From the IMG/VR virus record IMGVR_UViG_3300029422_000005: DNA of 58,960 nucleotides, one strand, 5' to 3'. Shown piece after piece: positions 43,023 through 45,744 of this stretch. Position 1 is the stretch's first letter. The number at the start of each line of letters is the position of its first letter. Under the pieces are notes generated by a model, which made no database searches, was not told the origin of the DNA, and worked only from the letters and a program-made list of their open reading frames with translations. A program made the translations under genes and the position numbers. The stretch is from a virus.

Positions 43023-43595
43023 ATGAAGAACATTAACTGGAATGACGTGCAGGAAGCAACTGAACGCCGTGACCTGCCTGTTGGCGGCTATGTTGCCGGT
43101 ATCTGCAAGGCAACGGACGAACCCGCAAAGGAGCGTCTGAACATTGAGTGGGAAGTCGCAGAGGGCGAGTTCAAGGGCTACTGGCGTGAGCAGACCGCTT
43201 CCCTTGTCGAGCGTGGCAAGTTGAATCCTGGCGAATGGGCATGGGGCGGCAAGACCATCAAGAGCTACAAGGAAAAGGCACTGCCGTTCTTCAAGGGCTT
43301 CATCACCGCTGTGGAGCAGTCCAATCCCGGTTACAAGTTTAACAACGATGAAAAGACCCTGCGTGGCAAGCTGGTCGGCGTGGTTCTCCGTGAGGAAGAG
43401 TACATGGGCAACGATGGCAACATCAAGACGAAGCTGGTCGTTGACCGATTCACCAGCGTGGACAAGATTCGTTCCGGCGATTATGAGGTCAGACCGAAAA
43501 AAACGCTGGCTGGCGGGTCTGGCTCCGGCTACTCGCAGGGCGGGAACGATGACTTTTCCGTAATTGAGGGCAATGCGGATGACATGCCATTCTGA
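43023..43595 (+). CDS. DUF669-family ssDNA-binding-like protein
   Basis: AAAGGAG RBS. Gly/Ser linker and an acidic C-terminal tip ...EGNADDMPF (SSB-tail-like). Confidence 0.65.
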   Translation: MKNINWNDVQEATERRDLPVGGYVAGICKATDEPAKERLNIEWEVAEGEFKGYWREQTASLVERGKLNPGEWAWGGKTIKSYKEKALPFFKGFITAVEQSNPGYKFNNDEKTLRGKLVGVVLREEEYMGNDGNIKTKLVVDRFTSVDKIRSGDYEVRPKKTLAGGSGSGYSQGGNDDFSVIEGNADDMPF

Positions 43596-43663
43596 CCTGT
43601 AAGGCATTGAACGCCTACCTTATATAAAAGCTGTGCTATCTGGCTGAACGGGCGTTTGGAAAG

Positions 43664-44395
43664 ATGAAACACTTGGGCGACATCACAAAGATTCACGGCG
43701 ACAAGATAGAGCCCGTGGACTGCATCACGTTCGGAAGCCCATGTCAGGATTTGTCCATTGCTGGACGCAGGGTGGGACTTGCGGGCGAACGCTCCGGGTT
43801 GTTCATGGAAGCGGTTCGAATCATAAAAGAAATGAGGTCAAGCACAAATGGACTGTATCCAACTTTCGCTGTTTGGGAAAACGTGCCCGGGGCTTTCAGT
43901 TCCAACGGCGGAGAAGATTTCAGAGCCGTGCTGGAAGAGCTTGCCCGCGTGGGACAACCAGACGCTTCAATTCCTAGACCTCCGAGGGGGGGCAGATGGA
44001 GCAAAGCCGGAGCAATCGCCGGAAACGGATGGTCTTTGGCTTGGCGACAGCTTGACGCTCAATATTGGGGAGTCCCCCAACGCCGAAAGAGAATCGCTCT
44101 TGTCGTGGATTTTGGAGGTCAACGCGCCGGAGAAATATTATTTGAGCGCACGAGCCTGTCAAGGCATCCTGACCCGTGCATCCCGGCGTGGAAAGAAACT
44201 GCCGGACTTACTGCAAACTGCCCTACTGGAAATGATCGAGTGGTGGCAGGGGGGGCGGAACACAGCCTATACCTTGAAAATACGTTCGGGATGCACGGGC
44301 GGCGGCAAGAGCGCACTGGTACAAACGGAGAAAACCGGGACGCTATCGACGCTCCAAGACCAGACGCATTTCCAAGCGATTCCCGTCTTAAATGA
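43664..44395 (+). CDS. C5 DNA methyltransferase fragment carrying motifs IV, VI and VIII only (motif I absent)
   Basis: FGSPCQDLS (IV), WENVPGAF (VI), LDAQYWGVPQRRKR (VIII). Begins MKHLGDITKIHG. The tail after ...ILFERTSL looks non-protein-like. Confidence 0.7.
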   Translation: MKHLGDITKIHGDKIEPVDCITFGSPCQDLSIAGRRVGLAGERSGLFMEAVRIIKEMRSSTNGLYPTFAVWENVPGAFSSNGGEDFRAVLEELARVGQPDASIPRPPRGGRWSKAGAIAGNGWSLAWRQLDAQYWGVPQRRKRIALVVDFGGQRAGEILFERTSLSRHPDPCIPAWKETAGLTANCPTGNDRVVAGGAEHSLYLENTFGMHGRRQERTGTNGENRDAIDAPRPDAFPSDSRLK

Positions 44396-45164
44396 CCAAG
44401 GCGGAGGGGCGATGAGTGTGTCCTATAACATGACGGGGACATTGCGGGCATCGGAACACGGACACCAACCTATTGTTCTGGAAAGTAACCAAATCCACGC
44501 AACGGTTACACAGACCGGCATCTGCCCAACGCTTCCAGCAAGCATGGGCCTTGGCGGCGGGTATGTTCCAATGGTCACGGAAAGAAAAATATTTGATGCA
44601 AGAGGAAATGGTGACGGCCAGATAGTGCCGACAATCACAGGCGACCACGAAAACAGAATCACAGATTACACGGCTATTGCAATCGAACGCAAGACCTTCA
44701 ACGAACAGTCTTTCAGCCACTACAAGGAAAGTGGCAAATGCTCAACCTTGAAAGCAAAAGCTGGGAACATTGGCAATGGCAGCGAATGCCTGATTGCAGA
44801 GAAAACTATCCGTTGGATTGTCCGCCGCCTGACCCCTGCTGAATGCGAACGGTTACAAGGATTTCCGAGCGGATGGACGGACATTGGTGACTGGACGGAT
44901 AGCAAAGGAAAGAAGCACAAATACGCTGACAGTCCACGGTACAAGGCTCTGGGCAACTCAATCGCTTTGCCACAGTGGTTCTGGCTGGTGCAGAGGATGC
45001 GCCCTTACCTGAAAGAAAAGCCTACGCTGGGTAGCTTATTCGATGGTATTGGTGGTTTCCCTCTGGTCTGGCAAAGAGCATACGGCGAGGGTACTGCACG
45101 CTGGGCAAGCGAAATCGAAAGCTTCTGCGTAGCTGTAACAAAAAGGAGATTCGGCGAAGAATGA
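43848..45164 (+). CDS. C5 DNA methyltransferase partner: target-recognition-like region, motifs IX and X, then motif I at the extreme C-terminus. Overlaps the previous ORF by 548 nt in another frame
   Basis: RRLTPAECERLQGFPSGWT (IX), YKALGNSIALP (X), TLGSLFDGIGGFPL...WASEIE (I/II) at about 45030-45120. GAGG lies 10 nt before the ATG at 43848. Confidence 0.7.
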   Translation: MDCIQLSLFGKTCPGLSVPTAEKISEPCWKSLPAWDNQTLQFLDLRGGADGAKPEQSPETDGLWLGDSLTLNIGESPNAERESLLSWILEVNAPEKYYLSARACQGILTRASRRGKKLPDLLQTALLEMIEWWQGGRNTAYTLKIRSGCTGGGKSALVQTEKTGTLSTLQDQTHFQAIPVLNDQGGGAMSVSYNMTGTLRASEHGHQPIVLESNQIHATVTQTGICPTLPASMGLGGGYVPMVTERKIFDARGNGDGQIVPTITGDHENRITDYTAIAIERKTFNEQSFSHYKESGKCSTLKAKAGNIGNGSECLIAEKTIRWIVRRLTPAECERLQGFPSGWTDIGDWTDSKGKKHKYADSPRYKALGNSIALPQWFWLVQRMRPYLKEKPTLGSLFDGIGGFPLVWQRAYGEGTARWASEIESFCVAVTKRRFGEE

Positions 45165-45379
45165 TTACCTGTTGTCTCAACTGCAAATCACGCCACACAG
45201 CTTGCCACGACACTTGCGAGAAGTATAAGGCAGAGAAGAAAGACTTCGAGGAGCGCAAGGCATTCGTGTATGAGCTGAACCACAGCCAGAGCGTATACTA
45301 CCGCGACTACGAGGATAAGCACCGGGAGCGTGGTAAGAAGCGGTATCTCGGAAGTGAATTTAGAGGTGAACGAGGATGA
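45161..45379 (+). CDS. Cys-rich small protein (72 aa)
   Basis: ATGA overlap. CCLNCKSRHTACHDTC. Confidence 0.5.
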   Translation: MITCCLNCKSRHTACHDTCEKYKAEKKDFEERKAFVYELNHSQSVYYRDYEDKHRERGKKRYLGSEFRGERG

Positions 45380-45744
45380 GACTTGTTGACGTAGAGCCGA
45401 TTATTGAAGGGTGGAAAGAAACCGGGAACAGTAAAAAAGCCAAAGCTAAAGCGCTTATGAACAGCGGAATTTACTCTGAATACAATAAAGGTGTTGCCCT
45501 TGACGCCGCTTCTGACCTTGTTTTGGCACTTGCCGAACAGCTTGAAAACGCTCCATCAATTGCGTGGACAAATGTAAAAGACAAACAACCGAAAGAAGAT
45601 GGAATTTATCTTGCTGTTTACGATTCTTTGATCTGGGAAAATCTGATTGGGAAAAGGAAGTTTGTAAACGGAAAGTGGATTGACAATAAAAACCCAGTCA
45701 AGTTCTGGATGCTAATTCCTAAAATTCCGGGAGACAACGAATGA
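45376..45744 (+). CDS. DUF551-like protein (paralog of 47940-48314)
   Basis: MRLVDVEPIIEGWKETGNSKKAKAK... versus MKLVDVDPIIAAWKTVGVGKKNEAK... C-terminal ...KFWMLIPKIP. Confidence 0.6.
   Translation: MRLVDVEPIIEGWKETGNSKKAKAKALMNSGIYSEYNKGVALDAASDLVLALAEQLENAPSIAWTNVKDKQPKEDGIYLAVYDSLIWENLIGKRKFVNGKWIDNKNPVKFWMLIPKIPGDNE

Follow-up and report, generated by a model that had tools for sequence, protein, structure and literature searches.

A phage C5-methyltransferase gene of permuted motif order, with a predicted gene embedded in its +1 frame and a split by loss of two nucleotides

How a phage comes to carry one cytosine methyltransferase in two overlapping reading frames, and what the overlap encodes, are the questions raised by a locus in the IMG/VR record IMGVR_UViG_3300029422_000005. 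The record is 58,960 nucleotides (nt) long (hereafter the window, which means the whole stretch of DNA analysed) and represents a phage genome of the siphovirus type; its genes include those for terminase, portal, major head protein, tape measure, Sak4-like annealing protein, Holliday junction resolvase and DnaB. An earlier note, made from the letters alone, described a motif-permuted C5 cytosine methyltransferase divided over two same-strand open reading frames (ORFs) in different frames, which overlap by 548 nt, and offered three readings: genuine dual coding, a recoding event joining the frames, or a decayed gene. With a probability of about 0.8, we favour one phage gene module with three layers: a permuted methyltransferase, an embedded gene in its +1 frame, and a split of the methyltransferase by loss of 2 nt. 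This reading is carried by the demonstrated anatomy of the locus, the selection on both frames, the indel, the recurrence of frame changes at homopolymers and the circulation of the allele. The coordinates and motifs of the two ORFs were all confirmed in the sequence (motif III to motif I were assigned by sequence reading) and are as follows:

43664-44395, plus strand: ORF1, 243 amino acids (aa), ATG start; N-terminal fragment of the permuted C5-methyltransferase
43848-45164, plus strand: ORF2, 438 aa, ATG start, in a frame other than that of ORF1
43848-44395, plus strand: overlap of ORF1 and ORF2, 548 nt
Start of ORF1 (MKHLGD), plus strand: motif III, HLGDIT
43739-43747, plus strand: motif IV, PCQ, in ORF1
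43877-43885, plus strand: motif VI, ENV, in ORF1
44078-44092, plus strand: motif VIII, QRRKR, in ORF1, followed by ILFE and a linker
44256-44395, plus strand: out-of-frame tail of ORF1, 46 codons, in which the target-recognition domain (TRD) region is read in the wrong frame
44823-44867, plus strand: motif IX, RRLTPAECERLQGFP, in ORF2
44952-44972, plus strand: motif X, GNSIALP, in ORF2
45033-45059, plus strand: motif I, SLFDGIGGF, in ORF2, followed by WASEIE, of which ASEIE is motif II
45024-45164, plus strand: motif I-II block, TLGSLFDGIGGFPL...WASEIESFCVAVTKRRFGEE and stop, the C-terminus of ORF2, which equals the N-terminal segment of canonical enzymes
43848-44255 and 44256-45164, plus strand: the two parts of ORF2, a fusion of the embedded gene and the 3' part of the methyltransferase

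Motifs I, II, IV, VI, VIII, IX and X of C5-methyltransferases are all present, spread over ORF1 and ORF2, and the 3' part of ORF2 holds the TRD (..YTLKIRSGC..TGTLSTLQDQ..), motif IX, motif X and the motif I-II block. Alignment with the PF00145 profile, which had been proposed as a check, placed the two products on separate parts of the profile: residues 3-97 of ORF1 match positions 46-134 (E 4.5e-24, 85.9 bits) and residues 288-375 of ORF2 match positions 230-313 (E 2.2e-8, 34.4 bits; cut-off 22 bits for both). The motif order given in the earlier note holds and can be put in the stricter form III-IV-VI-VIII / TRD-IX-X-I-II, since HLGDIT represents motif III and ASEIE motif II. The window gene therefore does not run from motif I to motif X in one chain, nor does its N-terminus lie in the variable region as in enzymes of the M.BssHII type (Type H/J); it begins at motif III and ends past motif II. 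This arrangement, of unit length and with new termini between motifs II and III, is the Class B topology that was defined for the engineered cp62M.MpeI.

The same order was found in intact relatives. In a phmmer search against PDB chains, the intact homolog P0123 (locus L009) matched M.HhaI with its residues 458-499 on HhaI 16-55 (motifs I-II), with residues 4-89 on HhaI 58-136 (motifs III-VI) and with residues 382-406 on HhaI 266-290 (motif IX). In the two closest GenBank contigs, L003 and L004, the enzyme is encoded by one ORF each, 591 and 453 aa long, with the layout MKHLGDITKI..PCQ..ENV..QRRKR..TRD..IX..X..SLFDG(I/L)GGF..ASEIE..KRRFGEE and stop; they score 112.6 and 118.9 bits on PF00145, respectively, and L003 reaches 103.5 bits on TIGR00675 (cut-off 100.65). 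Furthermore, we joined the two frames of the window at the G-run and used this repaired protein as a search query. Its best 120 matches, many of them from contigs of ~55-60 kb, showed coverage of 91-100% and identity of 72-92%, and every one was a single protein of 440-597 aa; permuted relatives are mostly one polypeptide of 440-690 aa.

For the family as a whole, 160 loci were gathered by methyltransferase-frame patterns alone, and their motif order was determined by tblastn of the motif I-II and IX-X blocks, which replaced an unreliable assignment by regular expressions. Permuted order was found in 28 of the 160 loci, 22 of these being single ORFs, and the breakpoint is identical in all 19 single-ORF permuted relatives (of the 22) for which the termini were printed. 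The nearest neighbour of each permuted gene is also permuted, in two pure clusters of 22 and 6 loci, and sequence relatedness points to a permutation that arose once, or at most twice. Where the cut was made can be read in the canonical methyltransferase of Streptococcus phage Javan191, which begins MSKELTLGSLFDGSGGFPL...SSEIEPFPIRVTTKRMPEVKHLGD and across the junction reads ...SSEIEPFPIRVTTKRMPEV-KHLGDVSKI... (..VTTKRMPEV followed directly by KHLGD..), at the place where permuted genes end (..VTKRRFGEE and stop) and start (M-KHLGD). The permutation is thus of unit length, with the cut between motifs II and III, and on its motif order the window gene is assigned to a clade of C5-methyltransferases arranged III-IV-VI-VIII-TRD-IX-X-I-II. 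Hence the permutation that the earlier note had seen is real and conserved, and a property of a whole clade rather than of this genome alone. The supposed design as two polypeptides did not stand, given that 22 of the 28 permuted relatives and hundreds of database homologs with an identity of about 90% are single ORFs.

What, then, does the second frame encode? Of the text shared by the two frames, ORF1 is meaningful to about 44255 only and the frame-2 reading for 43848-44255 only. The latter corresponds to a separate, conserved embedded gene with a predicted product of its own:

43848-44255, plus strand: embedded gene, MDCIQLSLFGKT...EKYYLSARACQGILTRASRRGKKLPDLLQTALLEMIEWWQGG, +1 frame, about 135 codons, lying over motifs VI-VIII and the linker
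43834-43837, plus strand: GAGG, Shine-Dalgarno-like core, 10 nt upstream of the embedded ATG at 43848

The open-frame analysis was made on the 160 loci, which had been picked without reference to the +1 frame in order to avoid circularity. In every one of them (160 of 160) the +1 frame stays open over no fewer than 123 codons; the ORF starts nearly always 13 codons 5' of WENV and ends mostly ~120-137 codons 3' of it (farther where it is extended or fused), whereas the +2 frame has an open span of typically 20-60 codons. When the methyltransferase protein was kept fixed and synonymous codons were shuffled, 2.5 stops were expected per 130-codon core, with a mean probability of 0.09 of finding none, yet a stop-free +1 core was observed in 153 of 158 loci. 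Outside the core, the +1 frame of the same genes contains 4.7 stops per 100 codons.

At 50% identity the embedded-peptide family forms 3044 clusters (874 with E <= 1e-10), and at 90% identity at least 6720; its few named members carry the name 'hypothetical' or 'uncharacterised' protein. With tblastn, the embedded peptide was found out of frame (+1) inside the annotated methyltransferase coding sequences of Streptococcus phage Javan191, Pseudomonas phage UF_RH7 and Providencia phage PSTRCR_117lys (E 4e-22 to 6e-14), in whose canonical-order genes the embedded ORF is open for 135-151 codons, and methyltransferase genes of canonical order in Clostridia, Bacilli and Streptococcus, Providencia and Pseudomonas phages likewise contain the embedded gene. 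Judged from the sequences, the embedded gene is older than the permutation. The frame-2 peptide to which attention had been drawn is accordingly protein-like, as stated, and is not a part of the methyltransferase, being a separate embedded gene that occurs in canonical relatives too. An explanation in which it would be a methyltransferase domain reached by two programmed frameshifts was dropped; such a path would bypass motif VIII, and the ORF starts at a conserved codon of its own.

UF_RH7 (L006, 1501-1956) has an open embedded frame of 151 codons but no ATG at the conserved position, the first one standing 28 codons in; proteobacterial embedded genes may use another start codon or give a shorter product. 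Longer +1 ORFs of 183-224 aa were seen in the single-ORF relatives L011, L012, L014, L019 (about 300-480 nt past WENV), L023 and L025. They read coiled-coil-like or helical-looking text (..AAAKAMEMLIAEEQKRIRREKLTALNERKERIREKAEK..) opposite charged low-complexity text of the methyltransferase frame (GRGRKGDGDADCRRTETDK..), and the insertion in these variants seems to serve the hidden frame.

Constraint on each frame was measured on 44 genes at <70% mutual identity. From the end of motif VIII to ILFE both frames are kept, with an identity of 0.67 in the methyltransferase frame and 0.66 in the +1 frame (null 0.27), while in the linker after ILFE the +1 frame is kept at 0.61 and the methyltransferase frame at 0.26 (null for the +1 frame 0.17, z about 111). 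Just outside the ORF, identity in the +1 frame falls near its null (0.29 vs 0.26 upstream, z 4.6; 0.12 vs 0.11 downstream, z 1.4). Moreover, nucleotide diversity at the three methyltransferase codon positions is 0.31/0.19/0.63 upstream and 0.59/0.39/0.28 in the linker, an inversion that moves the wobble to the third position of the +1 frame and that we attribute to coding in this frame. The final ~45 embedded codons are far better kept than the methyltransferase frame.

The start of the embedded gene carries signals of its own. Among 43 non-redundant relatives it is ATG in 42 loci, at the identical position in 37, and the gaaATGAGG that precedes it is nearly invariant. The Met-Arg codons (ATG AGG) of the methyltransferase KEMR supply the GAGG, and the embedded ORF is bounded by a +1-frame stop, the TGA at 43833-35. 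The +1 residue that arises from the Arg codon of KEMR shows a conservation of 0.76 against a null of 0.20. A frame open beyond expectation, constraint on the alternative-frame protein and own start signals, by which overprinted genes are recognised, were therefore all found.

Similarity in frame 2 might also be a passive by-product of conservation in the methyltransferase frame, with no embedded gene at all. Several +1 motifs do sit on methyltransferase motifs (FGK on WENV, LNxGExP on DAQYWGVPQ and EKYYLS on EILFE), and the +2 frame is likewise somewhat above its null. Such a by-product should not be kept best where the methyltransferase frame is poorly kept, as in the linker with its inverted codon-position diversity, nor does it account for the missing stops, for the conserved ATG and GAGG, or for lineages in which the +1 ORF is extended opposite low-complexity charged text. 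In our view the tests that were run have already refuted this explanation, and we give it hardly any weight. Hence, the embedded gene is retained: family-wide, both frames of the overlap are protein-like far beyond chance, and genuine dual coding, the first of the readings offered, is right for 43848-44255.

The predicted embedded protein is basic (median isoelectric point 9.2), and its C-terminal consensus is LSQIL..VPEKYYLSxKACxGILRRAxxRGKxLPxxLxxAL. An AlphaFold2 model from 90 diverse homologs gives a disordered stretch of ~85 N-terminal residues and a confident helical unit of ~45 C-terminal residues, with a predicted local distance difference test score (pLDDT) of 82-96. A PHROGs search returned one weak match only, phrog_16143 ('DNA methyltransferase', function unannotated).

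With the two layers separated, the split itself could be traced to the 3' end of the embedded gene. Two G-runs matter here and below:

44249-44255, plus strand: G7 run G2, at the 3' end of the embedded gene, where the frame breaks
43986-43992, plus strand: G7 run G1, between motifs VI and VII; in frame in the window

At G2 the window reads GGCAG--GGGGGGCGG, the locus L009 (P0123) GGCAGAGGGGGGGCGG and the locus L010 (P0121) GGCAGATGGGGGGCGG; the window is 2 nt short, and both single-ORF homologs stay in the ORF1 frame past 44255. The break sits a few codons 5' of the normal stop of the embedded gene. Consequently the embedded ORF continues into TRD-IX-X-I-II, and ORF1 enters its 46 out-of-frame codons. 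The position is after ILFE and the linker and before ..YTLKIRSGC..TGTLSTLQDQ, which corresponds to the division of M.AquI. A two-gene state is not the conserved state of the family, as 137 of the 147 loci with a scorable frame are single ORFs. Thus the 548-nt overlap consists of the embedded gene plus a 2-nt indel at a G-run and is no purpose-made arrangement.

A break exactly at a G7 run immediately raises the suspicion of a sequencing or assembly error, the true phage having one ORF, since homopolymers are error-prone and the data are metagenomic. This we consider highly improbable. The exact 438-aa ORF2 protein was found in 45 index blocks of the public collection (ENA and Logan samples), in at least 24 contigs, mostly of ~58 kb. 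The 2-nt gap is common to L008, L171 and L172, whose flanks differ from those of the window. The allele occurs in at least three mosaic backgrounds, with different upstream genes in L008 and a different downstream region in L172. Moreover, the difference is 2 nt and includes non-G bases (GA or AT), so it is no single-G miscount.

If the split is real, the frames might be joined again during expression. Ribosomal +1 slippage or transcriptional slippage on the G7 could restore a full-length methyltransferase, the recoding event among the readings offered. In the frame of ORF1 the run reads gca ggg ggg gcg, and a Gly-tRNA could re-pair one base downstream on GGG and give ..VVAGGRNTAYTLKIRSGC.., as in intact homologs. 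A stimulatory element is absent, and relatives do not keep the slippery context: the sequence here varies among intact ones, and L003 and L004 have no run. Transcriptional slippage is weaker on G-runs than on A/T runs, which also counts against such a recoding. Finally, recoding is not required, since ORF1 and ORF2 each have their own start; we judge it a rather improbable explanation.

In the family, fusions of the window type occur at six other loci, four permuted and two canonical. Two of these have a close in-frame comparator that differs in run length (L013 with G8 vs L018 with G7; L026 with G5 vs L027 with G7), and the sequences indicate that the L013 and L026 fusions arose independently at the homopolymer at this site. 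The other fusion loci carry G9 (L022), G8 (L075) and C10 (L030), and in L093 nothing longer than a G6 run lies nearby. Exactly this fusion type accounts for 6 of the 10 frame-broken genes among the 160 loci. Where a run of at least 7 is present at the G2 site, 6 of 12 loci are out of frame, compared with 4 of 148 without such a run.

The G1 site varies as well. The isolate phages FP_Toutatis and Lelie, identical over the ~200 nt aligned around the homologous tract, have G9 and G14 there, respectively; the gene would be in frame with G10 or G13 and is in frame in neither. A tract of at least G6 at this site is present in 14 of 28 permuted loci and in 3 of 130 canonical loci. What is expected of a phase-variable gene, a simple tract inside the ORF with frame-changing length polymorphism among close relatives, was thus observed. 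The pattern reads as the mark left by tracts prone to slippage; the G7 allele of the window itself looks stable. Two proteins, P0256 (457 aa) and P0370 (539 aa), read in one ORF methyltransferase III-VI, then the C-terminal half of the embedded frame in place of motifs VII-VIII, then TRD-IX-X-I-II, with no QxRxR; they represent the double-frameshift combination. With proteins of this type, every frame combination permitted by the two tracts exists in nature.

Does the split then mark a dead gene? The methyltransferase could be a pseudogene and ORF2 a meaningless by-product of which at most the embedded protein's part matters. In favour of this, most relatives are single ORFs, ORF1 ends with 46 out-of-frame codons, and the genes of Toutatis and Lelie are broken too, at the other G-run. 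These points have to be set against 1.5 kb without further lesions in any assembly and against the persistence of the allele across its mosaic backgrounds. The fusions, moreover, account for the majority of the frame-broken genes, though the target that permits them spans no more than a few tens of nt. In addition, the split lies where fragments of a natural enzyme (M.AquI) and of engineered enzymes complement each other (PMC5944983, PMC3404938). A dead methyltransferase is in our estimate unlikely, though clearly less so than recoding or error. The decayed gene of the earlier note fits in part: the frame is broken, but the identical allele is present in all those assemblies and backgrounds.

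We therefore return to the three-layered module and to the way in which it might work. The 2-nt loss at the second G7 places the TRD-IX-X-I-II part in the frame of the embedded gene; ORF1 (motifs III-VIII) and ORF2 would both be made, the latter from the embedded gene's own start. The two products could reassemble and give an active enzyme of two chains; otherwise they would stand for an OFF or alternative state of a switch prone to slippage. Engineered Class B permutants split at this position do reassemble. We lean slightly to retained activity of the split form as a prediction. The repeated and tolerated fusion to the DNA-recognition half may be taken as a weak 'Rosetta-stone' hint that the embedded protein works with the methyltransferase.

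A bolder proposal, which we put forward tentatively and think rather doubtful, is that the embedded product is a functional partner of the enzyme and that the two hypermutable G tracts switch gut-phage populations among three outputs, a multi-state epigenetic bet-hedging. The outputs would be a free partner with an intact methylase, a partner fused to the DNA-recognition half in a two-chain form, and chimeric or OFF forms. Such a switch might serve to hedge between hosts with methylation-sensitive and hosts with methylation-dependent restriction.

Several observations weigh against the module as we read it. The N-terminal half of the embedded protein is conserved only modestly above its null and is predicted to be disordered; the protein has no match in Pfam, NCBIfam or PADLOC and no known domain; and a Foldseek search of its model against PDB gave a best E of 3.5, which is no usable neighbour. 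The AlphaFold2 model of P0123 from 68 close homologs had a mean pLDDT of 39 and was unusable, so that the integrity of the permuted fold is judged from sequence alone. The shuffle nulls ignore phylogenetic relatedness, which the flank controls and the codon-position inversion address informally. The sequences are mostly metagenome assemblies, in which homopolymer lengths can be mis-called. Finally, the window allele is the same in all assemblies found, which speaks against fast switching at this G7 and provides no within-lineage selection test of the split form.

The surroundings of the gene contain one further conserved element:

43606-43663, plus strand: conserved leader of about 58 nt (..CGCCTACCTTATATAAAAGCTGTGCTATCTGGCTGAACGGGCGTTTGGAAAG), directly 5' of the methyltransferase ATG

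In an alignment of the window with L003, L004, L008, L009 and L010 the leader is nearly invariant, and it is kept though the upstream genes differ, with a single-stranded DNA-binding protein in L008 and L010, a 190-aa protein in the window and a phrog_18107 protein in some relatives. It may be a promoter or a regulatory leader that moves with the gene. A promoter and terminator scan of the plus strand at 43400-45400 gave nothing above shuffled sequences. The idea that the leader is a relic of ancestral motif-II coding upstream of 43664 (in-frame LAERAFGK compared with canonical TAKRFPDV) was dropped, as the upstream sequences of diverged permuted members are unrelated.

On the minus strand, a sigma-70-like pair (TTGACA, a spacer of 16-17 nt and TAATAT) lies at 44134-44162 of the window within the dual-coding segment; the count of such sites is not above that of shuffles. 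Downstream, at 45161-45379, a 72-aa Cys-rich ORF (MITCCLNCKSRHTACHDTCEKYK...) overlaps the methyltransferase stop by ATGA and has no Pfam match; it also stands 3' of the methyltransferase in L003, L004, L009, L010, L171 and L172. In Streptococcus phage Javan191 (L005, 542-1156), an annotated homing endonuclease gene is located between an adenine methyltransferase and the C5-methyltransferase with the embedded ORF.

The module would be of interest for several reasons. It would provide a natural counterpart to the permutation topology that is best tolerated in engineered C5-methyltransferases, and it would allow the duplication-and-truncation route to permutation to be tested in a living clade that has canonical sister genes at ~60% identity. 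In bacteria and double-stranded DNA phages, long genes that overlap on the same strand are seldom found and mostly disputed. The case for the embedded gene rests on thousands of diverged sequences in which the hidden frame is, within the overlap, more constrained than the annotated one. The gene is invisible to standard annotation, being usually uncalled and 'hypothetical' where it is named, and functional study, deletion or codon optimisation of these methyltransferases unknowingly changes a second, predicted protein. The homopolymer-linked fusions suggest how an embedded gene could convert an otherwise lethal frameshift into a viable two-chain architecture, possibly as a phase-variable switch in abundant human-gut phages (Faecalibacterium/Oscillospirales).

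How does the module compare with known systems? Natural permuted C5-methyltransferases have been described, namely M.BssHII, M.Alw26I, M2.Eco31I, M.Esp3I and M2.BsaI ('Type H/J'), and like the window gene they have the ten motifs circularly permuted, with X before I (PMC5944983). They are cut in the variable region, with IX-X before I-VIII, whereas in the window clade the cut separates motif II from motif III. In a 2018 REBASE survey, natural permutants were all cut in the variable region and none outside it (PMC5944983). Our own literature search, which had partial coverage, found no description of a natural II/III-permuted C5-methyltransferase and none of the embedded ORF, and this absence is no proof. 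The closest likeness is to the engineered Class B permutants, which share the topology, the split fragments being divided as ORF1 and ORF2 are, and which were the most active of all engineered permutants, at about wild-type level (PMC5944983). These are, however, laboratory constructs of unrelated CG-specific enzymes without an embedded gene or an extra domain on the TRD fragment.

As a C5-methyltransferase divided into two chains, the window form resembles M.AquI, whose division falls in the variable region, past motif VIII (PMC3404938), and M.EcoHK31I. In these enzymes the second chain is a methyltransferase piece (IX-X, or IX), whereas the out-of-frame product of the window has no methyltransferase motif block. 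The small subunit of M.EcoHK31I is reportedly encoded inside the large-subunit gene in another frame (Lee et al. 1995). Furthermore, unlike in M.AquI and M.EcoHK31I, the split of the window is specific to an allele, and the embedded gene is free-standing in the single-ORF majority.

Viral overprinted genes are long +1 ORFs in an older gene with disorder-rich products, and are best kept where the older frame is least constrained. The embedded gene has the same features, being best kept in the loosest part of its host frame. Viral overprinting is found in compact RNA and single-stranded DNA viruses, whereas the embedded gene sits in a widespread enzyme gene of double-stranded DNA phages, prophages and mobile elements across phyla, and, unlike viral overprinted genes, it overlaps catalytic motifs VI-VIII over about 400 nt. 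Phase-variable methyltransferases (phasevarions) are mainly bacterial Type I or Type III enzymes that are turned ON or OFF by homopolymer or repeat tracts in mod or hsd genes. Similarly, the permuted genes carry G tracts inside the methyltransferase ORF whose length varies between close relatives and changes the frame. In contrast to phasevarions, they are phage-borne, two tracts bracket the dual-coding segment, and a frame change enters another real coding frame, with free, fused or chimeric products rather than mere truncation.

Finally, a hidden ORF in another frame of a phage methylase gene is also known from actinophages of the ShiLan type, whose methylase genes harbour an out-of-frame HNH homing endonuclease as a sporadic mobile insertion in the third frame (PMC11855218). 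The embedded ORF described here differs in that it is no insertion, lies over core motifs, is present throughout its methyltransferase clade and encodes no known domain.

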